Assembly (NCBI GenBank): GCA_012521815.1
Contig: JAAYLR010000141.1
Span: 414 to 64,413 of the forward strand
Direction: 5' to 3'
DNA from: Acidobacteriota bacterium
Lineage (GTDB): Bacteria > Acidobacteriota > Thermoanaerobaculia > Multivoradales > JAGPDF01
DNA length: 64,000 nt
Below, piece by piece: positions 11,920-58,083 of this stretch. The position numbers and the translations under genes are program-made. The notes under the pieces were generated by a model. It was not told the DNA's origin, ran no database searches, and saw only the letters and a list, made by a program, of their open reading frames with translations. The first letter of the stretch is position 1, and each line of letters opens with the position of its first letter.

Positions 11920-12336
11920 TCAGCCGCGCTTCCTCGTCACCGCCCGCTTCCGCGCGGGGGGCGCGGCCGCCGACGCGGCGGGGGCGTGCCGCTCCTCCTC
12001 CAGGCGGAAGAGGATCCGGCCGCAGCGCTCGCACGTCTCGAGATCGCTCTGGCGGCTCGCCATCGCCGTCGGACGCACCGTGAAGCAGCCGAGACAGGTG
12101 CCACCGAGCGAGGGGACGACCGCCCGCGGATGGCGCTGCCGTATCCGCTCGTAGAGGCGCAGGACCCTGGCGTCGATCCGCGCCGCCGCCTCGGCCCGGG
12201 CCTCGCTCAGGCGCGTCGACTCCCCGAGCGGGAAGCCGAGCGCCGCCTCGCGCTCGCGCATCGCGGCCTCGCCGAGGTCGGCGAGCAGGGCGTCGAGCTC
12301 CTGCAGGACGAGGAGTTCCTGGATCTGTGGGTTCAT
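11920..12336 (-). CDS. zinc-ribbon protein (coiled-coil + C4 zinc ribbon, COG1579-like)
   Basis: 138 aa; coiled-coil N-terminal part then CLGCFTV...(16)...CERCGRIL (CxxC...CxxC). The ATG overlaps the stop of the upstream EIIA gene (ATGA). The long track ORF 11920..13512 is an upstream shadow extension. Confidence 0.7.
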   Translation of the reverse strand: MNPQIQELLVLQELDALLADLGEAAMREREAALGFPLGESTRLSEARAEAAARIDARVLRLYERIRQRHPRAVVPSLGGTCLGCFTVRPTAMASRQSDLETCERCGRILFRLEEERHAPAASAAAPPARKRAVTRKRG

Positions 12337-12833
12337 CGCGCGAGCGCCTCCTGGATGCGGGGCCGGATCAGCTGCCGCGCGAGCTTCTCCAGATCGTCGA
12401 AGCTCTCGACGGCGAGCAGCCGTTCGCGGTCGGTGTCGTGGTGCACCGCCGCCACCAGCACCCCGAGCAGCGGCAGATACCCCTCGCCGCCCACGCCGTA
12501 CGGCGCCACGACGAGGAAGACGCGCTCGACCGGGTGACCATCGACGGCCTGGAAGTCGAGGCCGCGGGCGAGCCGGGCGACGACGAGCGTCGTCCGCTGC
12601 GCGACCATCGAGCGGGCGTGCGGGATCGCGATCCCATGTCCGAGGCCGGTGGTGCCGAGCGCCTCGCGCTCGACGAGCAGGCGCTGGAAAGCGTTGCGGT
12701 CGTGGATCGCTCCCGCCGCGCCGAGGGCGTCGGCGAGCGCGGCGAAGAGCTCCTCCTGGCTGGAGACTTCGAGCGCGGGCAGGAAGAGGCCCGCCTCGAT
12801 CCGGATGGATGTGGCGATGTCGATCGGCTTCAC
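12333..12833 (-). CDS. PTS EIIA type-2 protein (PtsN / EIIA-Ntr-like)
   Basis: 166 aa. Phospho-His region GLGHGIAIPHAR in an EIIA(Fru/Mtl/Ntr) fold pattern. GTG start with GGGAGG SD, 18 nt downstream of the hycFG-like stop. Confidence 0.8.
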   Translation of the reverse strand: MKPIDIATSIRIEAGLFLPALEVSSQEELFAALADALGAAGAIHDRNAFQRLLVEREALGTTGLGHGIAIPHARSMVAQRTTLVVARLARGLDFQAVDGHPVERVFLVVAPYGVGGEGYLPLLGVLVAAVHHDTDRERLLAVESFDDLEKLARQLIRPRIQEALAR

Positions 12834-12851
12834 GATACCTCCCGGCTGAGA

Positions 12852-13631
12852 CTAACGGCTCTCGCCCGCGGATTCCAGACGCCCGAGGAGCCGCAGCATC
12901 CCGTCGAGCATGGTGAGGGGATGCGGCGGACAGCCCGGCACCCAGAGATCGACCGGCACCACCGCGCCGGCGCCGCCGGCGACCTCGGGGTGCCCCAGAT
13001 ACGGTCCCCCGGCGATCGCGCAGGCGCCGATGGCGATCACGATCTTCGGCGGCGCCACCGCGTCGTACGTCTTGCGCAGCGCGAGGCGCATGTTCTCGCT
13101 CACCGGCCCGGTCACGATCAGGCCGTCGGCGTGGCGCGGCGAGGCGACGATCCGGATGCCGAAGCGGCCGATGTCCCAGGCCAGCGTGGAGAGGACGTTG
13201 ACGTCCGCCTCGCAGGCGTTGCAGCCGCCGGCGCTCACCTGCCGGAGCTTGAGCGAGCGGCCGAAGAGGCGGCGGAGCCGTTCGTCGAGCGCGGTGGCGA
13301 GCGCGAGCTCCCGCTCGGCGCTCACCTGCAGCTCCTCGCGCCGGCGCACCGCGAGCCGGTGATCGCCGCCCCAGGTGATCGCGCCCTCCGGGCAGGCGGC
13401 GGCGCACTCCGCGCAGAAGAGGCAGCGGCCGAGATCGATCGCGATCGCGGGCGAGAGCGAGATCGCCTCCGTGGGGCAGACCTCCACGCAGTCGCGGCAA
13501 CCGTCGCGGCACCGCTCGGGCGCGAGCAGCGGACGGCCGCGGAAGCGGTCCGGCAGCGGCGGCGGCGGCCCGTCGGGGTAGGCGAAGGTCCGGTGCCCCT
13601 GATGGAGTCGCGCGCGCAGCAGTCTGATCAT
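12852..13631 (-). CDS. fused 2x[4Fe-4S] ferredoxin (HycF/NuoI-like) + hydrogenase/complex-I small subunit (HycG/NuoB-like)
   Basis: N-terminus has CRDGCRDCVEVCP and CLFCAECAAACP (two CxxCxxCxxxCP motifs). C-terminal part has SAGGCNACE, IGACAIAGGPY and VPGCPPHP, matching HycG/NuoB cluster-binding motifs. Confidence 0.85.
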   Translation of the reverse strand: MIRLLRARLHQGHRTFAYPDGPPPPLPDRFRGRPLLAPERCRDGCRDCVEVCPTEAISLSPAIAIDLGRCLFCAECAAACPEGAITWGGDHRLAVRRREELQVSAERELALATALDERLRRLFGRSLKLRQVSAGGCNACEADVNVLSTLAWDIGRFGIRIVASPRHADGLIVTGPVSENMRLALRKTYDAVAPPKIVIAIGACAIAGGPYLGHPEVAGGAGAVVPVDLWVPGCPPHPLTMLDGMLRLLGRLESAGESR

Positions 13632-13653: not shown

Positions 13654-15168
13654 TCAGAGGTCGTGTCCGCAGTAGGACAGGTTGAAGCTCTTGTTGCAGA
13701 GCGGGAAATCGGAGATCTGCCCGCCGCGCAGCGCCCGGGCGAGCCCGCTCCAGTTGTGGAACGACGGGTCGACGATCTTGTAGCGCGCGAAGCGCCCCGC
13801 GCGATCGGTGAGGGCGACGTGGCAGATCTCGCCGCGCCACCCCTCGACGAGCGACACCGCGAGGCTCTCGGGCGCGAGCCGCCCCACTGGCACCCGCACC
13901 TCCCCCTCCGGAAGCGCCGCGAGCGTGGCGTGGAGGAAGGCGAGCGAGTGCTCCATCTCGAGCCAGCGGACCCGGGCGCGGGCGTGGACGTCGCCGGAAG
14001 CCGCCGTGGCCACCGCCATCGACTGGTCGCGGTACGCCCCGCCGGGGTGATCGCGACGCAGGTCCCGGTCGACCCCCGAGGCGCGCGCCGCCGGCCCCAC
14101 CAGGCCGAGCGCGAGGGCGTCCTCCCGCGGCACCACGCCGGTCGTCTCGAACCGCTCCATGACCGACGAGCTCTCCCAGAGCAGCTCGATGGCGGAGCGG
14201 GCGTCGGTGAAGGTGCGGTCGAGGCCGGCCCGCAGGCGCTCGCGCCGCGCCGGCTCGAGGTCGAAGCCGCTGCCCCCCGGGCGGACGAGGCCGCGTCCGA
14301 AGCGCGAGCCGCAGAGCTCGGCCGAGAGGTTCAGGAAATCGCCCCTGATCCGCCCGCAGAAGGAGGCGGTCGGCAGGTAGCCGACGTCGCCGGCGAGCGC
14401 GCCGAGGTCGCCGGTGTGGTTCGCCAGCCGCTCGAGCTCGAGCGCGATCGCGCGCAGCGCCGCTCCCCGCGGCGGTGCCGCGGTGCCGGCGAGCGCCTCG
14501 ATCAGCTCGCAGCCCGCCGTCGCGTGGCCGATCGTCGTGTCGCCGGCGGAGGTCTCCAGGTAATGGATCGTGCGCCGGTCGGGCCCCCCGATGAGCGCCC
14601 GCTCCACCCCCCGGTGCTGGTAGCCGAGCCGGATCTCGAGGTGGAAGACCTGCTCGCCGTGGCACTGGAACCGGAAATGCCCGGGCTCGATCACCCCGGC
14701 GTGCACCGGCCCGACCCCGACCTCGTGGACCTCCTGCCCCTCGACCCGGTAGAGCTCGCCGGTACCGGGCAGCGCGGGGGCCGGCGCGCCCGCCGCGGGT
14801 GCGACCAGCGGTGGCTGCGAACGCACCGGCGCCGGCGCCGGATGCCCCTCCGCGACGAGCCCGAACTGCTCGGCGAGCTCGCGTTCGAAGAGGTGGAGCT
14901 GCGGACACGCGGCGGCTCGGGAGGGGAACGCCGGGCCGGTGAGCGTCGCCCGGGCAAGCGCGATCCCGGCGCGCGCGTCGTCGGCGAGCACCGCCACGAG
15001 CTCGACCCCCGAGGGGCGCGGCACCCCGAACCAGGCGGCCACCCGCAGCCCGCCGTCGCACGCCGTGACGACGGCGTCGGCCAGCTCGGCCACCGGCAGC
15101 GCCGGAATCTCCCGCCGCGCCACCGCGACCCCCGCCGTGGTCCGCAGGAAGCGGTCGGCGCCGCTCAT
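13654..15168 (-). CDS. NuoC-NuoD-fusion / HycE-like large subunit, apparently lacking NiFe-binding cysteines
   Basis: 504 aa. NuoC-like N-terminal domain, then GPVHAGVIEPGHFRF...LGYQHRGVE (NuoD/large-subunit signature). Where L1 (RxCGxCxxxH) is expected it reads SAGDTTIGH. The C-terminus ends FPLCNKSFNLSYCGHDL rather than DPCxxCxxR. ATGA coupling to the upstream gene; GGAGGGGG SD. Confidence 0.85.
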   Translation of the reverse strand: MSGADRFLRTTAGVAVARREIPALPVAELADAVVTACDGGLRVAAWFGVPRPSGVELVAVLADDARAGIALARATLTGPAFPSRAAACPQLHLFERELAEQFGLVAEGHPAPAPVRSQPPLVAPAAGAPAPALPGTGELYRVEGQEVHEVGVGPVHAGVIEPGHFRFQCHGEQVFHLEIRLGYQHRGVERALIGGPDRRTIHYLETSAGDTTIGHATAGCELIEALAGTAAPPRGAALRAIALELERLANHTGDLGALAGDVGYLPTASFCGRIRGDFLNLSAELCGSRFGRGLVRPGGSGFDLEPARRERLRAGLDRTFTDARSAIELLWESSSVMERFETTGVVPREDALALGLVGPAARASGVDRDLRRDHPGGAYRDQSMAVATAASGDVHARARVRWLEMEHSLAFLHATLAALPEGEVRVPVGRLAPESLAVSLVEGWRGEICHVALTDRAGRFARYKIVDPSFHNWSGLARALRGGQISDFPLCNKSFNLSYCGHDL

Positions 15169-16598
15169 CGTCCCCCTCCGAGCGCCGCCGCAGCCTCGGT
15201 CAGCAGCCCGCGCAGCGACGCCGGCAGATGGAGGCCGAGCAGGAGCACGAGCGCGACGAGCAGGAGCGGCGGCAGGTAGCCGCGCGCCCGGTCGCGGTAC
15301 GCCGACTGCCGGGCGTAGGCCGTCGGCCGTCCCTGGAGAGCGGCGAAGGTGGTCGTCCCCATCCCGGCGAAGACGAGCAGCAGGAGGGCGACGAAGAGGG
15401 CGGCCAGCCAGCCGCGCCCGGCGGCCAGCGCCACCTGCACGATCAGCAGCTTGCTCACGAAGAGGCCGAACGGGGGCGAGCCGGTGATCGCGAAGAGGCC
15501 GAAGAGGAAGACCGTGCCCGAATACGGCAGGCGCCGCAGCGCACCGCGGATCTCGCCGGTCGTCTTGCCGCCGAACGCCCGGTGGAGGTTCCCGGCCGCG
15601 AGGAAGAGCCCGGCCTTGCCGAAGGCGTTGAGCACGAGGTGCAGGAGCGCGGCGAAGGTGGCGGCGGCGCCGAGGCCGGCGGCGAGCGCGAGGATCCCCA
15701 TCTGCTCGACGCTCGAGTAGGCGAGCATCCGCTTCAGATCCCGCTGCCCGAGCAGCAGCGCGCCGGCCACCGCCATCGAAAGGAGGCCGATGGCGATGAG
15801 CAGGCGGTTCGCGTAGATCCCCTCGCCCGCCGCCGCGGTGAGCTGGGTGAAGCGCAGCAGGGCGAGGAAGGCGCAGCTCGTCAACCCCCCGGCGAGCACC
15901 GCGCCCACCACGCCGGGCGCCTCGCCGTAGGCGTCCGGCTTCCAGGTATGCATCGGCGCGAGCCCCATCTTCGTGCCGTAGCCGACGAGCAGCAGCGCGA
16001 AGCCGGTGCGCAGCCAGGGACGCGAGAGCTCGCCGGCGCGGGCGAGCAGGTCGGGGAAGAGGAGCGACGCCTCGCCGCCGCCGAGCAGCGCCGCGTAGCC
16101 GACGAAGAACGACCCGAGCAGCGCCAGCGCGATCCCCACCGAGGAGATCAGCAGGTACTTCCAGGTGGCCTCGATCGATCGCGCCGAGCGGTTGAAGTAG
16201 ACGAGCGGCGCCGAGGCGAGCGTCGTCGCCTCGATCCCCACCCAGAGCAGGCCGAGATGCTGCGCGTACGCCACCAGGCTCATCGCGCCGAGGACGGCGA
16301 GCATGCAGGCGGTGAAGCGGCGATTCTCCCGCTCGGGGCGCTGCTCCAGATAGCCGACCGCGTAGACGGCGCAGACGAGGAAGAGCACGCTCACGAGCAG
16401 CAGCAGGAGCCGCCCGGGGGCGTCGAGCCGGAGCCAGTCGCCGCCGCTCCCCGCGGGGGCGCGCAGCGCGAGCCCGACGAGGAGGAGGTGGATGGCCGCG
16501 CCGAGCGCGAGCAGCCGCGGCCGCCAGAGCCGGGAGGGCGTCAGGTAGACGGCGACCGCCAGGGCCAACGGCACGACGACGGGCAGCGGCAGGAGCAC
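15165..16598 (-). CDS. NuoM/NuoN-like proton-pumping membrane subunit (HyfF-like)
   Basis: 477 aa, polytopic; conserved antiporter-like block LGLAPMHTWKPDAYGEAP and others; GTG start 2 nt after the upstream stop. Confidence 0.85.
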   Translation of the reverse strand: MLLPLPVVVPLALAVAVYLTPSRLWRPRLLALGAAIHLLLVGLALRAPAGSGGDWLRLDAPGRLLLLLVSVLFLVCAVYAVGYLEQRPERENRRFTACMLAVLGAMSLVAYAQHLGLLWVGIEATTLASAPLVYFNRSARSIEATWKYLLISSVGIALALLGSFFVGYAALLGGGEASLLFPDLLARAGELSRPWLRTGFALLLVGYGTKMGLAPMHTWKPDAYGEAPGVVGAVLAGGLTSCAFLALLRFTQLTAAAGEGIYANRLLIAIGLLSMAVAGALLLGQRDLKRMLAYSSVEQMGILALAAGLGAAATFAALLHLVLNAFGKAGLFLAAGNLHRAFGGKTTGEIRGALRRLPYSGTVFLFGLFAITGSPPFGLFVSKLLIVQVALAAGRGWLAALFVALLLLVFAGMGTTTFAALQGRPTAYARQSAYRDRARGYLPPLLLVALVLLLGLHLPASLRGLLTEAAAALGGGR

Positions 16599-16600
16599 GG

Positions 16601-17242
16601 CTACTCCCGCAGCTGCGAGAGCCGCCGCGTGTCGAGCGAGGCGAACTCCCGGTTGATGTGGTGGATGATGATGCTGAGCACGAAGATGCCGACGAAGAGG
16701 TCGAGGAGCACCCCGGCCTCGACGAGGAACGGCATCGCCTCGACGAGCAGCAGGCCGAAGGCGAAGATCCCGTTCTCCAGCACGAGGTAGCCGACCACCT
16801 GGGTGATCGCCTTGCGCCGGGTGACGAGCAGGAGGAGCCCGGCGGCGACGGTGGCGAGCGCGGCCGGCACGAGCAGCGGCGCGAGCCGCTCCTCGGCGAA
16901 CGGGAGCCGCCCCGCCGCCGCCACCGCGAGCGCGGTGGTGAGGGCGCCGAGGACGAGCGACGGGAGCAGGCCGAGCAGCGGCTCGACCTCGCGCCGGATC
17001 GCCACCTGCCGGAGCGCCCGGAAGAGCATCGCCGGGATCAGCCAGGCCTTGAGCACCACGCTCGCGAGGGCGAGTACCAGCACCCGGTTGCTCGCCTCCC
17101 CGTGGGCGACGATCGCGATCACCCCGAGCAGCAGCCCCTGGAGGGCGACCGCCCGCACCATCGAGCCGATCCGGCCGGCGCCAAGCGCCACGAGGTTCAC
17201 GAGCAGGAGGCCGGCGACGAGGATCTCGAGCAGCGATTGCAT
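16601..17242 (-). CDS. HyfE-like small membrane subunit (NuoK-related)
   Basis: 213 aa hydrophobic protein with HyfE-like length and topology; 4-nt gap to the upstream gene. Confidence 0.75.
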   Translation of the reverse strand: MQSLLEILVAGLLLVNLVALGAGRIGSMVRAVALQGLLLGVIAIVAHGEASNRVLVLALASVVLKAWLIPAMLFRALRQVAIRREVEPLLGLLPSLVLGALTTALAVAAAGRLPFAEERLAPLLVPAALATVAAGLLLLVTRRKAITQVVGYLVLENGIFAFGLLLVEAMPFLVEAGVLLDLFVGIFVLSIIIHHINREFASLDTRRLSQLRE

Positions 17243-17246
17243 CCGG

Positions 17247-18194
17247 TCACCTTCCGAGCAGCAGCAGCGCGAAGCCGCAGCTGAGCACCGCGGCGACGAG
17301 CAGCGCCGGCACCCGCAGCAGCCGCAGCCGCGCCATGGTCGACTCCACGACGCCGATCAGCACCGCGACGGCGAGCACGCCGAGGACGAAGAAGCCGAGG
17401 CCGAGCCACCCCCGGACGGTGGCCGCCGGCACGAGGATGTGCATCAGGAGCACGTCGAGCACCAGCAGCTTGACCGCCGCGCCGTACTCCACGAGGCCGA
17501 AGAGCGGGCCGCTGTGGTCGAGGACCATGACCTCGTGGATCATCGTCAGCTCGAGGTGGGTCGCCGGGTCGTCGACCGGGATCCGGGCGCACTCGGCGAG
17601 CAGGACGATCAGCACCCCGGCGGCGACGAGCGCGAGCGCCACGGTGCTGTCGCGCCAGAGCTCCCCTTCCGGCGCCCGCAGCATGTCCTCGAGCTGCAGC
17701 GAGCCGGAGAGGCGCGCGAGAGCGAAGAAGGCGAAGAAGAGCGCCGGCTCGGTGAGCCAGGCGAAGCCGACCTCCCGGGCCGCCCCCATCCCCTCGAACG
17801 GCGAGCCGGTGTCGAGCGCCGCCGCGGCGGTGAAGAAGCGGCCGAGCGCGAGCAGGTAGGCGAAGAGCACGAAGTCGCCGGCGAAGGAGATCGGCGCGTC
17901 GAACGGCCCGAGCGGCACCACCAGCCCCGCCATCACCGCGGTGACGACCGCGAGTACCGGCGCGAGGGCGAAGACGCCGGTCGTCGTCGCGCTCAGCGCG
18001 AGCTCCTTGCGCGCGAGCTTGGCGAGATCGCGGTACGGCTGGACGAGGCTCGGGCCGCGCCGCCCCGCGAAGCGCGACTTCGTCCGCTGGATCACCCCGA
18101 GCAGGAGCGGCGGCAGCAGGAGGAGGACCCCGAGGTGGACCAGGATCTGGCTCAGCGCCACGGCGGACCTCCGGCGGCGTGGCTCACGAGCCAC
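17247..18194 (-). CDS. NuoH-like membrane subunit (HycD/HyfC-like)
   Basis: Aligns by eye to E. coli HycD (…RVARARLHNRRGPGVLQEYRDIIKLLGRQ vs …QRTKSRFAGRRGPSLVQPYRDLAKLARKE; ...LDTGSPF...). The true start is probably a few codons inside (near VALSQIL); the first ~11 Arg-rich residues are doubtful. Confidence 0.8.
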   Translation of the reverse strand: MAREPRRRRSAVALSQILVHLGVLLLLPPLLLGVIQRTKSRFAGRRGPSLVQPYRDLAKLARKELALSATTTGVFALAPVLAVVTAVMAGLVVPLGPFDAPISFAGDFVLFAYLLALGRFFTAAAALDTGSPFEGMGAAREVGFAWLTEPALFFAFFALARLSGSLQLEDMLRAPEGELWRDSTVALALVAAGVLIVLLAECARIPVDDPATHLELTMIHEVMVLDHSGPLFGLVEYGAAVKLLVLDVLLMHILVPAATVRGWLGLGFFVLGVLAVAVLIGVVESTMARLRLLRVPALLVAAVLSCGFALLLLGR

Positions 18195-20223
18195 CGAGCC
18201 TTTCCACGGGCCACCACGGCTGCAGGCTCACGAGCAGCAGGATCACGAGCGCGATCACGACGTAGAGGAGGTACTGCTGGAGGCTCCCCTGGTGGTAGCG
18301 GCGCAGCCGCTCGCTCAGCCGCACGAGCCACCGCACCCCGGGGCGCAGGAGCCGCTCGAGCACGCTGTCGGCGATCTCGGAGTGGAAGCTGCTCGCCTCC
18401 GGGAACGGCCCCTCGATCCGCGGCCAGCGGAAGCGGGGGGCGAGCACCCAGCCGAAGCGCGAGGTGATCAGCTCGGCGAACGACGAGGCCGTGTACTGCA
18501 GCCGCGGCGAGGCGCCGGCGAAACCGCAGTCCCAGGTCGGCAGCTCCGGCTGGCGTTCCCGGGCCCGGCGGCAGAGCGGGGCGAGCCGCAGCGAGATCAG
18601 GGCGGTGAGGAGGATCAGGAGGGCGGCGACGACCGCGAGCCGGCCGAGCGGCAGGAACCGCCCCCAGCCGAGGAGCGCCCCCGTGTCCTCCGCCCAGGCG
18701 GCGATCCCGCGATCGACCGCCGGCGCGAAGAGGCCGGGGGCGATACCGATCGCCACGCAGGCCGCGGCGAGGAGCGCCATCGGCCGGAGCATCGGCGCCG
18801 GTGCCTCCTTCGCCGCCGCGGCGGCCTCCGAGCGCGGGGTGCCGAGGAAGACGATGCCGTAGACCTTCACGAAGCAGGCGACCGCGAGCGCTCCGGTGGC
18901 CGCCAGCGCCGCCGCCGGCAGCGCGGCCCAGGCCGGGCCGGGGCCGAGCGCCGCCCGGGCGAGCCCGAGGAAGATCGCCAGCTCGCTCACGAAGCCGTTG
19001 AGCGGCGGCAGCGCACAGATCGCCACCGCGCCGACGAGGAAGAGCCCGGCGGTGGCCGGCATCCGCTTCGCGAGCCCCCCCTGGAGGTCGATCTCCCGGC
19101 TGCCGGTGGCGTGGAGGACCGAGCCCGCGCCGAAGAAGAGGAGCGACTTGAAGAGCGCGTGGTTCCAGACGTGGAGCAGGCAGCCGGCCATTCCGAGCAC
19201 CACCCAGTCGGCGCGGCCGGTGGCGCGCCCGGCCATCGCGAGCCCGAGGCCGAGGAGGATGATCCCGATGTTCTCGATGCTGTGGTAGGCGAGCAGCTTC
19301 TTCAGATCGTGCTGCGCGAGGGCGAAGACGACACCGAAGAACGCCGAGAGCCCGCCGGCGGCGAGCAGGACGACGCCCCAGGAGAGCGGCGGCGCCGCCA
19401 CCAGCCCGAGGGTCCGCACGAGCCCGTAGATCCCCATCTTGAGGACGACCCCCGACATCAGCGCCGAGACGTGGCTCGGGGCGCTCGCGTGGGCGTCGGG
19501 GAGCCACGAGTGGAGGGGCATCACCCCCGCCTTGATCCCGAAGCCGACGAGCGCGAGCGCGAAGAGCGCGGTGAGCGCCTTCGGCGCGGCGGTGGCCGGG
19601 ATCGCACCGAACGCGAAGCCGCCGCCGAGCTGCGCCTGGAGGGCGAAGAGCGCGACGAGGCAGAGCAGCGCCGCGTGGCTGTACAGCAGATAGGTCCAGC
19701 CGGCGGCGCGCACCTCGGCCCGCGCCTCCTCGGTGACCACGAGGAAGTAGGTCGCGAGCGCCATCGTCTCCCACGCGATCAGGAACGAGAAGCCGTCGCG
19801 GGCGGCGAGCAGCAGCAGGAGGCTCGCGAGCGCGAGGCCGTAGCTGAACTGGAGCCGCCGGCCGTGACGCGGGTGGCGGCGGGGATCCCAGTAGGTGCGG
19901 CCGTAGACCGCCCCGAGGCCGCCGACGAACAGGACCGGCAGCGCGAAGAAGCCGCTGAGGGCGTCGCCCCCGAGCTGCCCTTCGCCGAGGAAGAGCCCCG
20001 GCAGCCGCAGCGCGGCGGGTGCGGAGGCGGCGAGCAGCGCCACCGCGCCGGCGATCCCCACCGCGCAGCCGGCGAGCGTGAGCCGCACCGTCCAGCGCGA
20101 GCCCGACAGCGAGCGCCGCGGCAGGAGCAGCGCCGGCACCCCGCTGAGCGTGAGCACGAAGGCGGCGCCGAGCAGGAGCAGGAGCCCCGCGCGGGCGGCG
20201 AGGGGGCCTTCGAAGCCGCTCAT
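18184..20223 (-). CDS. NuoL-like antiporter-type membrane subunit (HyfB/HycC-like)
   Basis: 679 aa from MSGFEGPLAARAGLLLLL; conserved blocks WLPDAHASAPSHVSALMSGVVLKMGIYG and HALFKSLLF. ATG at 20223 overlaps the stop of the 31-aa HTH ORF (ATGA). The track ORF starts 69 codons earlier in non-coding-looking sequence. Confidence 0.85.
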   Translation of the reverse strand: MSGFEGPLAARAGLLLLLGAAFVLTLSGVPALLLPRRSLSGSRWTVRLTLAGCAVGIAGAVALLAASAPAALRLPGLFLGEGQLGGDALSGFFALPVLFVGGLGAVYGRTYWDPRRHPRHGRRLQFSYGLALASLLLLLAARDGFSFLIAWETMALATYFLVVTEEARAEVRAAGWTYLLYSHAALLCLVALFALQAQLGGGFAFGAIPATAAPKALTALFALALVGFGIKAGVMPLHSWLPDAHASAPSHVSALMSGVVLKMGIYGLVRTLGLVAAPPLSWGVVLLAAGGLSAFFGVVFALAQHDLKKLLAYHSIENIGIILLGLGLAMAGRATGRADWVVLGMAGCLLHVWNHALFKSLLFFGAGSVLHATGSREIDLQGGLAKRMPATAGLFLVGAVAICALPPLNGFVSELAIFLGLARAALGPGPAWAALPAAALAATGALAVACFVKVYGIVFLGTPRSEAAAAAKEAPAPMLRPMALLAAACVAIGIAPGLFAPAVDRGIAAWAEDTGALLGWGRFLPLGRLAVVAALLILLTALISLRLAPLCRRARERQPELPTWDCGFAGASPRLQYTASSFAELITSRFGWVLAPRFRWPRIEGPFPEASSFHSEIADSVLERLLRPGVRWLVRLSERLRRYHQGSLQQYLLYVVIALVILLLVSLQPWWPVERLGGS

Positions 20224-20315
20224 GCCTCGCTCACCACGCGCTGCTCGATCCAGCGATAGATCGTCTTCTCGGAGACGTCCAGCAGGCGGGCGGCATCCCT
20301 GACGAGGAGCTTCAT
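20220..20315 (-). CDS. 31-aa mini helix-turn-helix ORF (excisionase/MerR-type HTH_17-like), translationally coupled to the complex operon
   Basis: MKLLVRDAARLLDVSEKTIYRWIEQRVVSEA: a canonical 'LL.vs..T.YRwi..' HTH with the usual C-terminal wing missing. Its stop overlaps the next ATG (ATGA). Absent from the track because it is under 60 aa. No strong SD. Confidence 0.35.
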   Translation of the reverse strand: MKLLVRDAARLLDVSEKTIYRWIEQRVVSEA

Positions 20316-20350
20316 GGAGCAGATGTCGCCCCAGGGGGACGACAATGGAC

Positions 20351-20379
20351 AATCTATCCCGCTCCCACTCCCACTTCAA
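20351..20379 (-). promoter_or_regulatory. candidate sigma70-type promoter for the mini-HTH / complex operon
   Basis: On the minus strand: TTGAAG (20379-20374), a 17-nt spacer, TAGATT (20356-20351), about 40 nt upstream of the HTH ATG. An AATCAtTGATT inverted repeat lies about 50 nt further upstream (20432-20442). Confidence 0.3.
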
Positions 20380-20517
20380 CGGATGACAGGCAATGGCGAA
20401 AGCGGACCTCGCCCCGTCCAATCCGATCAAATCATTGATTCAAAGGAGTTTTCTCGCTCGTCGGCGCGCCCGGCACGCGACGGGAGGACGCTCACCCTCA
20501 CCCCTCCGCAAATCGCC

Positions 20518-20575
20518 TGGCACCTTCCGCCGGCAAATCCGGCAAATCGGCTGGCACCTTTCGGGCACCTTTCGG
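20518..20575. repeat. structured tandem direct-repeat array in the 290-bp intergenic region upstream of the operon
   Basis: GGCACCTTCCG (20519-20529), CCGGCAAAT x2 (20530-20547), GGCACCTTTCG x2 perfect tandem (20553-20574). Likely regulator binding sites. Confidence 0.5.
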
Positions 20576-49487: not shown

Positions 49488-50624
49488 ATGCCGCCGACTC
49501 TCAACGCGCTGCTGAAGACCATGGTGGAGCAGGGGGGTTCCGATCTCCACATCACCACCAACTCCCCGCCCCAGATCCGGGTCGACGGCGTTCTCCACGC
49601 CCTCGACATCCCCCCGATGTCGCCCAGCGACACGAAACAGATCTGCTACGCCATCCTCACCGACAACCAGAAACACCGCCTCGAGGAGAACCTCGAGATC
49701 GACTTCTCCTTCGGCATCAAGGGGCTCTCCCGCTTCCGCGCCAACGTCTACCATCAGAGGGGGGCCATCGCCGGCGCCTTCCGGACGATCCCCTACGAGA
49801 TCCGCTCCTTCCGGGATCTCGGCCTGCCGCCGGTGGTGGAGAAGATCTGCGAGAAGCCGCGCGGGCTCGTGCTGGTGACCGGCCCCACCGGCTCCGGCAA
49901 GACGACGACGCTCGCGGCGATGCTCGACAAGATCAACCGGGAGCGCCACGAGCACATCGTCACCATCGAGGACCCGGTCGAGTACCTCCACTCGCACAAG
50001 AAGTGCATCGTCAACCAGCGCGAGCTCCACGCCGACACCCACAGCTTCGCCAACGCGCTGCGTTCGGCGCTGCGGCAGGATCCCGACGTGGTGCTGATCG
50101 GCGAGATGCGCGACTACGAGACGGTCGAGTCGGCGCTCCGCATCGCCGAGACCGGCCACCTCACCTTCGCCACCCTCCACACCAACAGCGCCGCGCAGAC
50201 GATCAACCGTATCGTGGACATCTTCCCCGCCCACCAGCAGGGGCAGATCCGCGTGCAACTCTCGTTCGTGCTCGAAGGCATCCTCTGCCAGTCGCTCCTG
50301 CCGCGCGTCTCCGGCAAGGGCCGGGCCCTCGCCATGGAGATCCTGGTTCCCAACTCGGCGATCCGCAACCTGATCCGCGAGGACAAGGTGCACCAGATCT
50401 ACGGCATGATGCAGACCGGACAGGCCAAGCACGGGATGCAGACCTTCAACCAGTCCCTGGCCACGCTCTACTTCCGGCGCCAGATCAGCCTGCAGACCGC
50501 GCTCGCCCGCTCTTCGTATCCGGACGAGCTGCAGGAGATCATCGCCCGTGGTCCCTCCGCGGTCGGCCTCGGGCCGCAGGGGGCGGAGAAGCCGGGGAAC
50601 TCGACCGCTGCCGTCAGGAGCTGA
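49488..50624 (+). CDS. pilT: type IV pilus retraction ATPase PilT
   Basis: 378 aa; GSDLHITTNSPPQIRVDG; Walker A GPTGSGKTT; AAGGAG RBS. Confidence 0.95.
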   Translation: MPPTLNALLKTMVEQGGSDLHITTNSPPQIRVDGVLHALDIPPMSPSDTKQICYAILTDNQKHRLEENLEIDFSFGIKGLSRFRANVYHQRGAIAGAFRTIPYEIRSFRDLGLPPVVEKICEKPRGLVLVTGPTGSGKTTTLAAMLDKINRERHEHIVTIEDPVEYLHSHKKCIVNQRELHADTHSFANALRSALRQDPDVVLIGEMRDYETVESALRIAETGHLTFATLHTNSAAQTINRIVDIFPAHQQGQIRVQLSFVLEGILCQSLLPRVSGKGRALAMEILVPNSAIRNLIREDKVHQIYGMMQTGQAKHGMQTFNQSLATLYFRRQISLQTALARSSYPDELQEIIARGPSAVGLGPQGAEKPGNSTAAVRS

Positions 50625-50627
50625 GCC

Positions 50628-51833
50628 ATGCCGAACTTCGTCTGGAAGGGGAAGACCCGGACCGGCGCCCTGCAGGAGGGCGTGCTGCTCGCCGACTCCC
50701 GTGACGCGGCGCTCGCCGTGCTGCGGCGCCAGAACATCCAGGTCACCAACCTGCGGGAGAAGGGCAAGGAGGTCCGCCTCCTGCCGCGGCTGCCCCAGGG
50801 GATCGACGCCAAACGGGTCGCGGTCTTCACCCGGCAGTTCTCGGTGATGCTCGATGCCGGCCTGCCCCTCGTGCAGTGTCTCGAGATCCTCGGCGAGCAG
50901 GAGGAGAACCGGCGGTTCCGGGAGATCATCAACCAGGTGCGCAGCGACGTCGAGCAGGGCTCCTCGCTCGCCGACGCGATGCGCAAGCACCCGGTGGCCT
51001 TCAACAACCTCTACACCAACATGATCGCCGCCGGCGAGGCGGGCGGCATCCTCGACATCATCCTCCAGCGGCTGTCGACCTACATCGAGAAGGCGGTCAA
51101 GCTCAACGCCCAGGTGAAATCGGCGCTGGTCTACCCGACGACCGTCATCGTCATCGCCGTCCTGGTCGTGATCGTCATCCTCTGGAAGGTGATCCCGGTC
51201 TTCGCCCAGCTCTTCGCCGGGCTCGGCGGCGAGCTGCCGTTCCTCACCCGCATGGTGGTCGGCGCGAGCAACTTCCTCGGCCGCTACTTCATCTTCGTCG
51301 CCATCGGCGTGGTGGCGCTCGTCTACGCCGTGCGCGCCTGGCACAAGACGCCGAGCGGGGCGCGGATCATCGACGCCGGCCTGCTGCGGATCCCGGCGAT
51401 CGGCATGCTGCTGCGCAAGATCGCGGTCGCCCGCTTCTGCCGCACCCTCTCGACGCTGACCTCCTCCGGCGTGCCGATCCTCGACGGTCTCGAGATCACC
51501 GCCAAGACGGCGGGCAACGCGATCATCGAGGACGCGGTGATGGCGGTGCGCAAGAACGTCGAGGAGGGCAAGACGATCTCCGGACCGCTCGCCGAGACCA
51601 AGGTCTTCCCGGCGATGGTCGTGCACATGATCAACGTCGGCGAACAGACCGGCGCGCTCGACCAGATGCTCTCGAAGATCGCGGACTTCTACGAGGAAGA
51701 GGTGGACATGGCGGTGGCCAACCTCATGAAGCTGATCGAACCGCTCATGATCCTCTTCCTCGGCACAGTCATCGGCACCATCGTGGCCGCGATGTACCTG
51801 CCCATGTACGCGATTCTCCAGAAGCTCGGCTAG
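50628..51833 (+). CDS. pilC: type IV pilus platform protein PilC (GspF family)
   Basis: 401 aa; two GspF repeats; AGGAG RBS 3 nt after the pilT stop. Confidence 0.9.
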   Translation: MPNFVWKGKTRTGALQEGVLLADSRDAALAVLRRQNIQVTNLREKGKEVRLLPRLPQGIDAKRVAVFTRQFSVMLDAGLPLVQCLEILGEQEENRRFREIINQVRSDVEQGSSLADAMRKHPVAFNNLYTNMIAAGEAGGILDIILQRLSTYIEKAVKLNAQVKSALVYPTTVIVIAVLVVIVILWKVIPVFAQLFAGLGGELPFLTRMVVGASNFLGRYFIFVAIGVVALVYAVRAWHKTPSGARIIDAGLLRIPAIGMLLRKIAVARFCRTLSTLTSSGVPILDGLEITAKTAGNAIIEDAVMAVRKNVEEGKTISGPLAETKVFPAMVVHMINVGEQTGALDQMLSKIADFYEEEVDMAVANLMKLIEPLMILFLGTVIGTIVAAMYLPMYAILQKLG

Positions 51834-51867
51834 CAGCGCCCTGTTCCCCACCCCGGCCACCGCCGCG

Positions 51868-53550
51868 GTGCCAGCGGCCCGCCTCCTCGGCCAGCTCCGC
51901 TGGCTCATCGTGATCCGGCTGGTGATGATCACCAGCGTGGCGGTGCCGTACTTCCTGCTCCGCCTCACCGCCGCCCGGGAAGGGCAGATCCCCTTCTTCG
52001 GCTCCGGCGCGCCCGACCTGCTGCTCCTGCTCACCGGCGCCACCTACCTCGCGAGCCTCGTCTATTTCGCGCTGCTGCGTCCTCTCGCTTGTCGCGCCGT
52101 CCTCCAGGCCGCGATCCAGTTCGGGGGCGACCTGGTGCTCATCACCGGGCTCGTCTACTGGTTCGGCGGCATCGCCAGCCCGTTCTCGCTGCTCTATCTG
52201 CTCGTCATCGCCTACGCCGCGGTGATGCTCCGGAGGCAGGCGGCGTTCTGGACCGCCACCGCCGCCTACATCGCCTACGCCGCCCTCCTGCTCGCGCTCT
52301 ATCGCGGCTGGATCCCCGGGCGCCCGGACACGCTCACCGGCGACGAGGGCTTCACGCGCCTCCTCTACAACCTCGCCGTCCACCTCTTCGGCTTCTACGC
52401 CGTCGCCCTTCTCACCTCGCATCTGGCTTTGACGCTGAGCCGCTCCGAGCGCGCGCTGGCCGAACAGAGCGACAACCTCGCCGATCTGCGGGTGGCGCAC
52501 CACGATGTCGTGCAGTCGATCCCGAGCGGCCTGCTCACCACCGATCTCGACGGCGCCGTCACCCGCCTGAACCGCGCGGCCGAGGAGATCCTCGGCCGCA
52601 GCGAAAGCGCCCTGCTCGGTGCGCACGTGGCCACGACCGGCCTCTTTTCGCGCTCGCGCTGGACGCACGAGACCGAGCTCGAGCGGCGGGGCGCCTACCA
52701 CCGTGCCGAGACCGAGCTCGCGCGGGGCGAGGCCCGGATCCCGATCGGCTACTCGCTCGGCGAGATCACCGACGCCCACGGCCGCCGCTCCGGCTTCGTC
52801 GTGGTCTTCCAGGACCTCTCCGAGTGGCGCCGGCTGCAGGAGGAGGTGCGGGTCAAGGACCGGATGGCGGCGGTCGGCGAGCTCGCCGCCGGGCTCGCGC
52901 ACGAGGTCGGCAACCCGCTCGCCGCGATCTCCGGCTCGGTGCAGATGCTCTCGGCCGCGCCCGGCGTCGACCCCGGCCAGCGCCAGCTGCTCACCATCGT
53001 GCACCGGGAGAGCCAGCGGCTCGACCGCACCATCAAGGGGTTCCTGCGCTTCGCGCGCCCCCGCGACCAGGCGGTGGTCGAGTTCGACATCGCCCGCCTC
53101 GTCGCCGAGCATTTCGAGCTGCTTCGCAACTCCGAGGAGGCCGGCCCGAGGCACCGGCTGCGGCTCGCGCTCGATCAGCAGTCGACGACCGCGATCGCCG
53201 ATCCCGACCAGGTGAGCCAGATCTTCTGGAACCTCGCCCGCAACGCCCTGCGCGCGATGCCCGACGGCGGCGACCTCGTGGTGAGCGGGCAGCGGCAGGA
53301 CGAGCGCTACCGGTTGAGCTTCCGCGACAGCGGCCACGGCATGGATCCCGAACAGCGCGCCCGTCTCTTCCAGCCCTTCCAGTCGTTCTTCGACGGCGGT
53401 ACCGGTCTCGGGATGGCGATCGTCTACCGTCTCGTCCAGGAGCACGACGGCCGCGTGAGTGTGGAGAGCAAGGAGGGCGCCGGGACGACGATCACCGTCG
53501 AGCTGCCGCTGCGGCCGGCGGCAGCGGCGTCCGAGAGGGGAACGGCATGA
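51868..53550 (+). CDS. pilS: PilS-like sensor histidine kinase
   Basis: GTG start; N-terminal 5-6 TM, a PAS-like segment, H-box GELAAGLAHEVGNPL, HATPase (GTGLGMAIV). Confidence 0.85.
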   Translation: MPAARLLGQLRWLIVIRLVMITSVAVPYFLLRLTAAREGQIPFFGSGAPDLLLLLTGATYLASLVYFALLRPLACRAVLQAAIQFGGDLVLITGLVYWFGGIASPFSLLYLLVIAYAAVMLRRQAAFWTATAAYIAYAALLLALYRGWIPGRPDTLTGDEGFTRLLYNLAVHLFGFYAVALLTSHLALTLSRSERALAEQSDNLADLRVAHHDVVQSIPSGLLTTDLDGAVTRLNRAAEEILGRSESALLGAHVATTGLFSRSRWTHETELERRGAYHRAETELARGEARIPIGYSLGEITDAHGRRSGFVVVFQDLSEWRRLQEEVRVKDRMAAVGELAAGLAHEVGNPLAAISGSVQMLSAAPGVDPGQRQLLTIVHRESQRLDRTIKGFLRFARPRDQAVVEFDIARLVAEHFELLRNSEEAGPRHRLRLALDQQSTTAIADPDQVSQIFWNLARNALRAMPDGGDLVVSGQRQDERYRLSFRDSGHGMDPEQRARLFQPFQSFFDGGTGLGMAIVYRLVQEHDGRVSVESKEGAGTTITVELPLRPAAAASERGTA

Positions 53551-54968
53551 GCGCCCGGCTGCTCGTGGTCGACGACGAGCCGAGCATGCTCGACATGCTC
53601 TCGCTGCTCTGGCGTGCCGAGGGTTACGAGGTCGAGACCGCCCGCTCGGTCGGCGAGGCGCGCGAACGGCTCGCCGAGCGGCCCGTCGACCTGGTGCTCT
53701 GCGACATCCTGATGCCGGACGGCAACGGCCTCGAGCTGCTGCGGGAGATCAAGGCGTCCGACCCGCGGGTGGCGGTGATCATGATGACCGCCTACACCTC
53801 GACGAAGAGCGCCCTCGAGGCGATGAAGCTCGGCGCCTACGACTACATCTCCAAGCCGTTCGCCGATCTCGAGGAGCTCAAGCTGCTCGTCGCCAAGGCG
53901 CTCGAGAAGACCCAGCTGGTCGACGAAAACGTCTATCTGCGCGGCGAGCTCGAGCGGCGTTACGCCTTCGACCGGATCGTCGGCCGCAGCCCCCGGATGC
54001 GCGCCGTCTTCGAGCTCGTGGAGCGGGTCGCGCGCACCCATTCCACCGTCCTGATCCAGGGCGAGAGCGGCACCGGCAAGGAGCTCGTCGCCCGGGCGAT
54101 CCACTTCGCGAGCCCGCGCGCCCGGCAGCGCTTCCTCTCGGTCAACTGCGGCGCCCTGCCCGAAACCCTGCTCGAGAGCGAGCTGTTCGGCCACGAGCGG
54201 GGGGCCTTCACCGGCGCGGTGCGCGAGAAGCGGGGGCTCTTCCAGGAGGCCAACCGCGGCACCCTCTTCCTCGACGAGATCGGCGACATGTCGCTGCCGA
54301 TGCAGGTGAAACTGCTCCGGGCGCTGCAGGATCGCACCGTGCGCAAGGTCGGCGGCACCGTCGAGGAGCCGGTGGACGTGCGGATCATCGCCGCCACGAA
54401 CCAGAACCTCGCCGAGCGGCTCGCGCAGGGGACCTTCCGCGAGGACCTCTTCTACCGGATCAACGTGATTCCGATCGAGCTCCCGCCGCTGCGTGAACGG
54501 CGGGAGGACATCCCGCTGCTGGTGCACCACTTCCTGCTCGAGAGCAGCCGCCGGCTGGGGATCGAGCCGCGGCGGATCTCGGTCGAGGCGATGCGGCGGC
54601 TCGAGACCCACTCCTGGCCGGGCAACGTGCGCGAGCTCGAGAACCTCGTGGAGCGTACGCTCGCCCTCTCCACCGCCGAGGTCATCACCACCGACGATCT
54701 CCCGCTCGAGCTGCTCATCCCGGGCCAGACCGGGGCCGCGACTCCGACCCTGCCCTCCGAGGGGCTCGATCTCGAAGCCCACCTCGACGGCCTCCGGCGG
54801 GAGCTGATGCGGCAGGCGCTCGATCGCACCGGTGGCCATCAGGGGCAGGCGGCCGAGCTGCTCGGGATGAGCCTCCGTTCGTTTCGCTACTATGCCGGCA
54901 AGTGCGGGCTCGCGGGACGGCGGGACGACGAGGAGGCGGCCGCCACGCCCCCCACCGCCGAACCATGA
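53547..54968 (+). CDS. pilR: sigma-54-dependent response regulator PilR (NtrC family)
   Basis: ATGA overlap with pilS. REC domain (LLVVDDEPS...D54), AAA+ sigma54-interaction domain ([14 protein letters not shown]), C-terminal Fis-type HTH. Confidence 0.9.
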
Positions 54969-55023
54969 GAAACCGGTCTCTCCGGACCGCCGCGTCCGGA
55001 CGCCGGAGCCCGCGAGGCCGCCG

Positions 55024-58000: not shown

Positions 58001-58083
58001 GCGACATCCACCTGCTGCTGCGACAGGCCGACGCGGCGCTCTACCGCGCCAAGGAGCGCGGGCGCGACCGCGTCGCCACCTGA
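55024..58083 (+). CDS. diguanylate cyclase with N-terminal periplasmic beta-propeller (two-component-regulator-propeller / Y_Y_Y-like) sensor, TM, GGDEF domain
   Basis: Signal sequence MSHHPPVRSSCRVLLLAVTLLLASPAGGAMA. About 12 LWIGT..GGL propeller repeats. TM WARLALLVLIVGLVALIV, coiled coil, then GGDEF with RYGGEEFGVIL active site. Confidence 0.85.
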   Translation: MSHHPPVRSSCRVLLLAVTLLLASPAGGAMAATDPAARAQPVLQIYGDRDGLPHNTVSEIALDREGRLWIGTHDGVATFDGRAWRTIELPQPHKTHRIRSLLPAHDGGLWIGTEAGGLVRWREEGAQSIEQVRVGAIDLPLNRVNALLELETPQGERELWAGTHAGGIFRRRGGEWHRYGTEEGLPTLQVWSLLATRDAAGAATIWAGTLRGLVRLEPDGNRFEPVPGAPEAPVVRLTATRDDAGRPIVWAATFGQGLHRLQGTAWTRWTRTEGLPNDFVIALSPSRAPDGRSGVWVGTDGGGVARVSEGVDQVFDEQSGLSATAAVYALLETTTADGVSALWIGMRNGGLARLRRYGWKSFVLHDEGARLPVSALLETTDPQGNPRYWLGTDGGGLFRLDSDGWQRLTGPGAPLPDDTIRCLLARGESGREEVWVGTRNRGLMRFAAGRWQTFDRAGGALPDDIVEALLETSEAAGESILWVGTRTGLVRFDGRRWERVATPGWPLESRFQTFASTRDPNGGLVLWVGTDDGLGRLENGSWRLLGTEAGLPNPIVRSLHAGTGPGGEPALWVGTTGGGVALIDLAAESRPPILLDRGTLPGLPNDVIHGITEDATGSVYLLTNRGVARLTPEPNPGPDGASYRVTSFNHEDGLPLNQGNRGAVMRDRHGRIWVGTVGGAAFYEPGSERPDQVAKRLLLRGRLLPEGRLLESGERLSYRSSSIRFDYTLLSFFREETSAYRSRLVGLEAQPTSWGNESAREFVHLPAGNYRFQAWGRDYAGNVTGPVEIAFAIRPAPWQTLWARLALLVLIVGLVALIVRHRSRRHARRERELTEQVEARTRQLHEANLALMKLSYADPVTSVANRRRFDEALEHEWRRAERMRIPLALIMIDVDRFKEFNDTYGHQRGDEVLRTVATALNDGLKRSGDLLGRYGGEEFGVILPDTSLDGAVLVAEQLRRRIKRLAIAHDASHVAPHVTISCGVASLEPDKGGDIHLLLRQADAALYRAKERGRDRVAT

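Follow-up and report, generated by a model that had tools for sequence, protein, structure and literature searches.

A two-gene cassette of a PtsN-like EIIA and a half-size DUF164 zinc-ribbon protein at the end of an Ehr-type operon in Thermoanaerobaculia

Introduction

Most of the known regulatory EIIA proteins of the phosphoenolpyruvate (PEP)-dependent phosphotransferase system (PTS) come from Proteobacteria, and their direct partners were identified individually. The few DUF164 proteins that have been studied bind sigma-54, and the function of this family is otherwise largely open. As for the Ehr-type complexes, we know of no substrate or physiological role for any of them. Here we analyse a stretch of DNA in which members of all three groups are encoded side by side, a window of 64,000 nucleotides (nt) from an Acidobacteriota bacterium of the class Thermoanaerobaculia (GenBank assembly GCA_012521815.1, contig JAAYLR010000141.1, positions 414 to 64,413), where an operon for an Ehr-type complex ends with two genes, the first encoding a single-domain EIIA protein (hereafter EIIA) and the second a zinc-ribbon protein (hereafter ZnR).

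The closest described relatives of ZnR are CT398 (CdsZ) of Chlamydia and HP0958 (FlgZ) of Helicobacter, which belong to the DUF164 family (PF02591 plus PF24481). The C-terminal helices and the C4 ribbon of these proteins are common to ZnR, and CT398 and ZnR both have a basic C-terminal tail. Unlike CT398 and HP0958, ZnR proteins are only about half as long (110-160 versus 234-265 amino acids (aa)), and the partner of their gene is EIIA, not NIF3 or rpoD, the gene neighbours reported for the long DUF164 forms (PMC3372290). Within the DUF164 family, the binding of RpoN or of secretion-apparatus proteins is known for HP0958 and CT398 only (PMC3372290).

EIIA itself resembles EIIA-Ntr (PtsN), with which it shares the single-domain EIIA_2 fold family as well as an arginine and a phospho-acceptor histidine at nearly the same positions (R56 and H72). 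Unlike PtsN, it scores below the family cut-offs, lies outside an rpoN operon, carries an invariant Tyr119 and is always paired with a gene for a DUF164-type zinc ribbon. The genes that precede it encode the same six-subunit set as Ehr complexes, hydrogenase-4 (Hyf) and formate hydrogenlyase. Unlike in Hyf and formate hydrogenlyase, the cysteines that serve as NiFe ligands are missing, the NuoI- and NuoB-like modules are fused, and genes for PTS domains bracket the operon. At the head of this operon type stands a fusion of an HTH_17 and an EIIA_2 domain (HTH_17-EIIA), which recalls the PTS-regulated transcription factors of the MtlR, LicR and LevR type, since it combines a DNA-binding domain with an EIIA(Mtl/Ntr)-type domain containing the phospho-His motif GIAIPH. 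Unlike them, HTH_17-EIIA is minimal, consisting of two domains in 231 aa, with an HTH_17/MerR-like DNA-binding part and without PRD or EIIB-like domains, and in the window only a stub of it is left.

Results and discussion

An EIIA-ZnR gene pair in more than ten phyla

When one genome per species was scanned with a ZnR profile, 80 loci were returned, 65 of them strong, and in 63 of these 65, which come from more than 10 phyla, the gene immediately upstream of ZnR encodes an EIIA homologue. The taxa concerned include Eisenbacteria, Gemmatimonadota, Latescibacteria, Zixibacteria, KSB1 and Krumholzibacteriia, together with Fermentibacteria, Fibrobacteraceae, Cytophagia, Dormiibacterota and Omnitrophota. 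Across 66 non-redundant pairs, the EIIA stop and the ZnR start overlap in 41, are 0-30 nt apart in 24 and lie further apart in just one. In about 60 genomes outside Thermoanaerobaculia the pair has no Ehr genes in its vicinity, and clustering of the genes around these stand-alone pairs gave no other universally conserved neighbour; the GAF-SpoIIE phosphatase, TPR, ABC-transporter and lipopolysaccharide genes found near them represent lineage-specific synteny. Both EIIA and ZnR are real genes rather than chance open reading frames of GC-rich DNA, since each has many homologues and the GC content at the third codon positions of EIIA is 0.91.

EIIA-ZnR is a self-contained, widespread and apparently undescribed two-gene cassette. 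Since the phospho-acceptor histidine is invariant and the translational coupling obligatory, we infer as the simplest reading that EIIA can be phosphorylated and that ZnR would be its direct partner. An earlier reading of this DNA, made without database searches (the sequence-only reading), had regarded the linkage of such an EIIA to an Ehr-like operon as undescribed, and we found no paper on it. Specifically, our literature search, outside which lay most subscription journals including the original Ehr papers, gave no description of an association between EIIA or PtsN and a DUF164 zinc ribbon, or of a PTS link of an Ehr- or Hyf-like operon; searches on HTH-EIIA fusions and on Thermoanaerobaculia hydrogenases gave no description of these linkages either. 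The component families are known; what appears to be new is that EIIA is paired with ZnR and that PTS-domain genes bracket an Ehr-type operon.

In Eisenbacteria (about 21 loci, L001-L009, L031 and others; handles beginning with L denote the loci compared with the window), small unannotated genes and a gene for a GAF-GAF-SpoIIE (PP2C) phosphatase lie about 0.4-4 kb downstream of ZnR. The cassette and this phosphatase may form a partner-switching-type module, kept mainly within Eisenbacteria.

The EIIA protein

EIIA matches the Pfam model PTS_EIIA_2 (PF00359) over profile positions 11-139 of 144 (E=1.2e-22; 80.9 bits, cut-off 27), and its GIAIPHAR motif, with His72 inside, occupies residues 67-74. 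All four of its matches in the PDB are PtsN/EIIA-Ntr proteins (2a0j as the best, with 7.5e-15, then 3urr, 4gqx and 1a6j), with whose structures the catalytic R56 and GIAIPH72 align. The NCBIfam cut-offs for PtsN equivalogs are missed by a wide distance (TIGR01419, 65.9 versus 138.7 bits; NF008145, 39.7 versus 221 bits), and EIIA also stays under the NCBIfam cut-off for FruA-IIA. Thus, of the earlier description of this protein as PtsN-like, the likeness stands, as all PDB matches are PtsN, but orthology does not follow, as the cut-offs are missed; EIIA is a single-domain protein of the Mtl/Fru/Ntr class that is PtsN-like but not demonstrably a PtsN orthologue.

An alignment of 67 ZnR-linked EIIAs revealed eight invariant residues, R56, E57, T62, A69, P71, H72, P111 and Y119. 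The last of these stands where PtsN has its second active-site histidine (the 'HL' position, within 'HLEVL' in 2a0j; His120 in E. coli PtsN). A tyrosine is found there in the window protein and in all 67 ZnR-linked EIIAs, and the HTH_17-EIIA paralogue retains the histidine. Tyr119 is a signature of the ZnR-linked EIIA subfamily. We also considered that the window EIIA might be the displaced EIIA domain of the HTH fusion, and rejected this as the two are only about 35% identical and differ at position 119.

There is no EIIB or EIIC gene nearby, so EIIA is expected to work via protein-protein interaction and not in sugar transport. No rpoN was found among the window genes scanned, nor is one conserved near the cassette, and EIIA, which follows the Ehr-type genes, lies outside any rpoN-hpf-ptsN-rapZ-npr cluster.

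The zinc-ribbon protein

ZnR contains two CxxC motifs, whose cysteines (C81, C84, C102 and C105) do not vary among 31 homologues. The profile built from these 31 sequences matched CT398 (4ilo, 9.5e-15), HP0958 (3na7, 1.3e-10) and, with 0.016, MSMEG_4306 (5y05) in the PDB, and the match is limited to the C-terminal 100 or so residues of the solved proteins (about 151-254 of CT398). The AlphaFold model of ZnR, with a mean predicted local distance difference test (pLDDT) score of 78.5, consists of three helices and the ribbon, and in a Foldseek search with it only CT398 (4ilo) was matched significantly in the PDB (E=7.4e-4, probability 1.0), with MSMEG_4306 (5y06) next. The window protein itself remains under the curated cut-offs (PF24481 (CT398_CC), 20.6 versus 27 bits; NF047363 (CdsZ), 34 versus 275; PF02591 not reported); its relative in L155 clears PF02591 with 37.2 bits (cut-off 29.1). 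What ZnR does not have is the N-terminal coiled-coil half of the full-length DUF164 proteins, which measure about 235-260 aa and form a long coiled-coil hairpin; the window protein has 138 aa. Moreover, a search of 1.84 billion protein representatives with the ZnR profile gave 612 proteins at E<=1e-10, and within the 150 that were listed, the full-length DUF164 proteins of 234-265 aa rank behind roughly 100 cluster representatives of 110-160 aa. Since the profile matches CT398 and HP0958, the fold matches CT398 and the short forms group apart, ZnR is a distinct half-size branch of DUF164.

This kinship bears on what ZnR might do. One possibility is that ZnR binds sigma-54 (RpoN) and stabilises or sequesters it, like HP0958/FlgZ and CT398/CdsZ, and that EIIA makes this binding PTS-dependent, which would be a specific version of the output step proposed below and a rewired form of the ptsN-rpoN connection. 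ZnR is homologous to the C-terminal half and the zinc ribbon of CT398 and HP0958. RpoN accumulation depends on the ribbon of HP0958, and RpoN and DUF164 proteins co-occur (PMC3372290). Among solved structures, those closest to EIIA are PtsN proteins, and ptsN is reported to lie near rpoN in Proteobacteria (PMC5024086). That the organism uses sigma-54 at all follows from a sigma-54-dependent response regulator encoded in the window (53541-54968). We nevertheless judge this possibility quite improbable, since the N-terminal coiled-coil half is missing from ZnR, neither rpoN nor a sigma-54 activator is conserved beside the cassette, and the region upstream of the operon, inspected by eye, showed no -24/-12 promoter, a sigma-70-like one being present instead.

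Where ZnR is linked to Ehr genes (L017, L021, L183-185, L155, L167 and the window, in which the tail is encoded at 11920-12006 on the minus strand), it ends in a Pro/Ala-rich, net-positive C-terminal tail of 25-60 residues. Tails of at least 15 residues were found in 10 of the 11 Ehr-linked ZnR proteins, belonging to both of the ZnR subfamilies distinguished below (median 31 aa, net charge +5), as opposed to one of the 63 proteins from stand-alone cassettes, which stop about 3 residues past the zinc ribbon.

The Ehr-type operon

In the window, whose GC content is 74%, all genes of the operon lie on the minus strand, and EIIA and ZnR are the co-oriented, translationally coupled final cistrons of a packed unit that extends from about 20350, where the putative promoter lies, to 11920. 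Upstream of EIIA are genes for homologues of HyfB, HyfC/NuoH, HyfE, HyfF, NuoC/D-HycE and a NuoI+NuoB (HycF+HycG) fusion, and the distances at all 8 junctions of the unit are between -11 and +22 nt. EIIA starts 18 nt past the stop of the HycF/G-like gene (12852), and the ATG of ZnR shares an ATGA with the EIIA stop and is preceded, 10 nt upstream and inside the EIIA gene, by an AGGAGG of its own. A scan around the junction between the HycF/G-like gene and EIIA predicted no terminator-like or promoter-like site there, and the DNA downstream of ZnR folds no better than its shuffles (z=-0.41).

The best PDB match of the large subunit, EhrL, is E. coli HycE (7z0s_E, E=1.2e-36), and in the alignment the NiFe cysteines are gone, with CGIC of HycE opposite AGDT and DPCYSC opposite NLSYCG. 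Since these ligands are absent the complex is not a hydrogenase, and the label 'Ehr-like' is apt. The sequence-only reading had chosen this label, and here the subunit homologies uphold it. The same reading had placed a type 2 EIIA with the GIAIPHAR histidine 18 nt after the HycFG-like stop, behind a GGGAGG Shine-Dalgarno sequence, and had seen it coupled by ATGA to a coiled-coil/C4 zinc-ribbon protein; all of these coordinates and the coupling are confirmed, with the four cysteines invariant as described above, and the terminator or promoter between hycFG and EIIA that it had named as speaking against its proposal is not predicted.

The C-terminus of EhrL is CNKSFNLSYCGHDL, and the same ending is found in L024, the sole relative whose large subunit was compared.

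PTS genes at the operon head

A second PTS component is found at the other end of the operon. In 14 of the 15 metagenome operons with enough upstream sequence, the first gene encodes the 231-aa HTH_17-EIIA_2 fusion, and the Thermoanaerobaculia genome and assembly loci are likewise headed by it. This family is very large, with over 7,700 members at E<=1e-10. Because it combines a DNA-binding domain with an EIIA domain in which the phospho-His motif is retained, HTH_17-EIIA is plausibly switched by PTS phosphorylation. Of the window copy only the first 25 residues can be recognised, which match the N-terminus of the 231-aa protein in L021 at 92% identity; the remainder is deleted, and L013 carries the same 31-codon stub. 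This leaves EIIA-ZnR as the sole PTS component of the window operon.

The putative promoter, which is sigma-70-like and conserved in related operons, consists of a -35 element (TTGAAG, 20374-20379), a 17-nt spacer and a -10 element (TAGATT, 20351-20356). A direct repeat, TGTCCATTGTCGTCC (20337-20351), overlaps both the -10 element and the likely start of transcription, and has been kept in the window despite the loss of the regulator. A TGTCC-N5-TGTCC repeat with at most one mismatch was found no further than 250 nt upstream of the first gene in 13 of 17 related operons (L018, L020, L021, L130, L135, L154, L158, L166, L167, L176, L182, L183 and L185), which represents a 55-fold enrichment over the rest of the loci. 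This repeat is probably the operator of HTH_17-EIIA. Moreover, ptsI, the gene for Enzyme I, divergently adjoins the operon in four lineages (L020/23, L021, L183 and L185). A PTS linkage of the Ehr-type complex is therefore supported.

Three further observations concern this region. A sigma-54-type -24/-12 promoter upstream of the operon was sought by eye and rejected, since the repeated GGTGCC...TTGC motif lacks the GG-N10-GC spacing. In two metagenome contigs, the Ehr-type operon comes after a tandem pair of HTH_17-EIIA paralogues with 27% and 46-49% identity to the query (L118, 2271-3562; L130, 2120-3425). Finally, the motif GGTGCCAGSCRAKTTGC has two matches in the window where 0.00 are expected; it is found upstream of the operon only in the closest relatives (L013, 2276-2317; L017-19, near 80 and at 1135-1180), where it also occurs upstream of a DUF1475 gene.

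Linkage of the pair to the Ehr-type operon

The block of Ehr genes followed by ZnR, with or without EIIA between them, is present in at least eight Thermoanaerobaculia loci (window/L013, L017-19, L020/23, L021/22, L024, L183, L184 and L185). L013 is a 99% twin of the window from an independent assembly, and ZnR is 77% identical to the window protein in L017-19, 58% in L021/22 and 49% in L183. Contigs with 99% protein-level identity also occur in samples from anaerobic digesters (JGI 3300010344 and related). The flanks vary. The window operon has RecQ/NfeD upstream and a GDSL lipase downstream, and L017-19 have DUF2878 upstream; ptsI is the upstream neighbour in L021, L183, L020 and L185, whose downstream neighbours are, respectively, MgtE, a polyketide cyclase, a Bac_transf-domain gene and a CBM9 protein. 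The distance from the HycF/G-like gene to EIIA is +18 nt both in the window and in L018, -1 nt in L183 and -4 nt in L021. L020/23, L024 and L185 have no stand-alone EIIA, and there ZnR comes directly after the HycF/G-like gene, with an ATGA overlap in L024. In every ZnR locus for which the relevant sequence was covered, one or more EIIA domains, free-standing or fused, accompany ZnR in cis.

We consider it reasonably likely that EIIA-ZnR is a PTS-sensing regulatory pair, in which His72 is phosphorylated by Enzyme I and HPr and ZnR provides the output, and that a clade of Thermoanaerobaculia attached this pair to an operon that was already linked to the PTS via HTH_17-EIIA. Enzyme I and HPr would then phosphorylate His72 according to the PEP/pyruvate state, and the phosphorylation state of EIIA would govern the binding or release of ZnR, which in turn would act, like its larger relatives, on another protein or on nucleic acid. 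Candidate targets of ZnR would be sigma-54, a nucleic acid or, via the basic tail, the Ehr-type complex or the membrane. Control of the Ehr-type complex by the PTS would be exerted mainly through HTH_17-EIIA, probably by binding to the TGTCC repeat, with the co-expressed EIIA-ZnR as a second PTS-dependent input; Ehr-linked ZnR proteins have gained a basic tail, through which they may attach to nucleic acid, to the complex or to the membrane.

Several points weigh against this interpretation. The first concerns how far the linkage extends. A metagenome scan with the HycF/G-like protein yielded 80 loci (58-71% identity), 55 of them with at least 600 nt of downstream sequence; in none of these 55 more distant Ehr-type operons is there an EIIA, and only two (L155 and L167) carry a ZnR, which is divergent (24-27% identity; PF02591 E=3.1e-9), short and located immediately behind the HycF/G-like gene. 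These two ZnR proteins represent a second subfamily that was independently recruited to the same position. Most Ehr-type operons terminate at the HycF/G-like gene. Second, in L010-12, which are collinear with L018 at 90% nucleotide identity, the segment L018:1045-9504 (8.46 kb, including the promoter, HTH_17-EIIA and the six Ehr genes) is replaced by 218 nt of unrelated DNA. The junction lies exactly at the EIIA start codon and EIIA-ZnR is intact. The Ehr block as a whole is polymorphic here, by insertion or deletion, and since the pair is kept without that block, its link to Ehr is clade-specific and dispensable in cis. Third, Tyr119 stands in place of the second active-site histidine, and the phosphotransfer behaviour of EIIA may therefore differ from the canonical one. 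Fourth, neither an HPr nor an Enzyme I gene is present in the 64-kb window, and tblastn with the E. coli and B. subtilis HPr sequences found no match in the window or in the 185 loci. Finally, the correlation between tail and Ehr linkage comes down to roughly two independent lineages.

The same observations decide how the alternatives fare. The sequence-only reading had proposed post-translational control of the complex through EIIA. In this model EIIA binds the membrane subunits of the Ehr complex according to its phosphorylation state and thereby gates ion-translocating or redox activity, as EIIA-Ntr does with TrkA, KdpD and YcgO. There is some precedent for this, since the K+/H+ antiporter YcgO is reportedly inhibited by unphosphorylated PtsN (PMC11808508). 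EIIA and ZnR are co-transcribed and tightly coupled with the structural genes, and the block survives rearrangements in Thermoanaerobaculia; the tail correlation is the sole specific support, as the basic tail of Ehr-linked ZnR could tether the complex to the membrane. However, the same Tyr119 subfamily of EIIA accompanies ZnR in the roughly 60 genomes without Ehr genes nearby, none of the 55 other Ehr-type operons has an EIIA, EIIA has gone from L020/23, L024 and L185 where ZnR is kept, and the pair persists in L010-12 without the Ehr block. We therefore see direct gating as unlikely. Since it is ZnR that EIIA has as its conserved partner, and since the operon's widespread link to the PTS is a fusion of EIIA with a DNA-binding domain, transcriptional or other regulatory control is favoured over binding of EIIA to membrane subunits. 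Thus the earlier idea of PTS control retains its general part, the PTS link of the operon (HTH_17-EIIA in 14 of 15, ptsI in four lineages), and loses its specific part, EIIA as an Ehr-dedicated component; likewise, the expected co-occurrence of EIIA and ZnR with Ehr operons holds in the Thermoanaerobaculia loci listed above and fails elsewhere (0 and 2 of 55, respectively).

At the other extreme, the cassette might have no functional link to the Ehr-type complex at all, being an independent regulatory unit that happens to be downstream and is transcribed by read-through. Its stand-alone occurrence in most phyla, the unrelated 218-nt upstream region in L010-12 and the many Ehr-type operons that end without it would all fit. 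Such indifference is hard to reconcile with a junction of -4 to +18 nt that is kept in several lineages with differing flanks, with the ATGA overlap between ZnR and the HycF/G-like gene in L024, with the independent arrival of a second ZnR subfamily at the same position or with a basic tail specific to the Ehr-linked proteins, and we find it distinctly improbable.

Hydrogenase operons are often closed by accessory genes, and ZnR could likewise serve the Ehr-type complex as an accessory or assembly factor modulated by EIIA, such as a chaperone of its peripheral Fe-S subunits. ZnR stands alone after the HycF/G-like gene in L020/23, L024, L185, L155 and L167, as such a role would predict; yet most short ZnR genes lie away from any Ehr genes and always beside EIIA, and domain-model scans detected no similarity to known maturation factors, which makes this explanation very unlikely.

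Returning to the PTS-sensing pair with ZnR as its output, the conserved coupling in more than 10 mostly uncultivated phyla would name a single candidate partner for this EIIA, one that belongs to the DUF164 family, and the connection to the PTS offers a testable hypothesis for what DUF164 proteins do. Ehr-type operons have an HTH_17-EIIA head with a conserved repeat, adjoin ptsI and, in one clade, end in EIIA-ZnR, which suggests that Ehr expression tracks the PEP/pyruvate (carbon/energy) state, which would narrow the conditions in which to look for activity. The natural variants, with both EIIA forms, with one form or with the cassette but no Ehr block, can guide experiments. A bolder version would hold that EIIA-ZnR is an unrecognised PTS output module in which a PtsN-like sensor controls ZnR, a miniature adaptor of the CT398/HP0958 type acting on sigma-54/RNA polymerase or, in its tailed form, docking on the Ehr-type complex, and that this module and HTH_17-EIIA together make Ehr a PEP/pyruvate-gated energy-converting system; the chances of all this being correct are, in our opinion, low.

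Feature coordinates and other genes of the window

The features of the operon are collected in Table 1.

Table 1 Features of the Ehr-type operon and of its EIIA-ZnR end, in coordinates of the window
Feature	Position	Strand	Start codon or basis
ZnR, 138 aa, half-size DUF164/CT398/HP0958 family; helical hairpin, C4 zinc ribbon, Pro/Ala-rich basic tail	11920..12336	-	ATG start
EIIA, 166 aa, single-domain, PtsN-like; Arg56, phospho-acceptor His72 (predicted), family-specific Tyr119	12333..12833	-	GTG start
18-nt spacer with ribosome-binding site GGGAGG (12838-12843, 4 nt before GTG)	12834..12851	-	
EhrS, 259 aa, HycF/NuoI-like 2x[4Fe-4S] ferredoxin fused to HycG/NuoB-like subunit	12852..13631	-	Pfam/NCBIfam homology
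EhrL, 504 aa, NuoC/D-HycE-like large subunit without NiFe cysteine ligands	13654..15168	-	Domain models; PDB alignment
EhrD, 477 aa, HyfF-like antiporter-type subunit	15165..16598	-	Domain models
EhrC, 213 aa, HyfE-like membrane subunit	16601..17242	-	Hydrogenase 4 membrane subunit model, E=3.3e-21
EhrB, 315 aa, HyfC-NuoH-like membrane subunit	17247..18194	-	NADHdh, E=1.1e-34
EhrA, 679 aa, HyfB-like antiporter-type membrane subunit	18184..20223	-	Proton_antipo_M; hydrogenase 4 subunit B model, 564 bits
HTH_17-EIIA regulator stub, 31 codons (MKLLVRDAARLLDVSEKTIYRWIEQRVVSEA, then stop); ATGA overlap with EhrA gene	20220..20315	-	
Putative sigma-70-type promoter and direct-repeat operator TGTCCATTGTCGTCC	20337..20379	-	Function inferred
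17-nt motif GGTGCCAGSCRAKTTGC, two copies (20508-20524, 20542-20558), upstream of operon promoter	20508..20558	-	

Elsewhere in the window, the plus strand carries at 49488-54968 a type IV pilus set (PilB-like T2SSE and PilC-like T2SSF) with a PilS-like histidine kinase and the sigma-54-dependent response regulator already mentioned, and this regulator is followed by a large Reg_prop-GGDEF protein (54892-58083).

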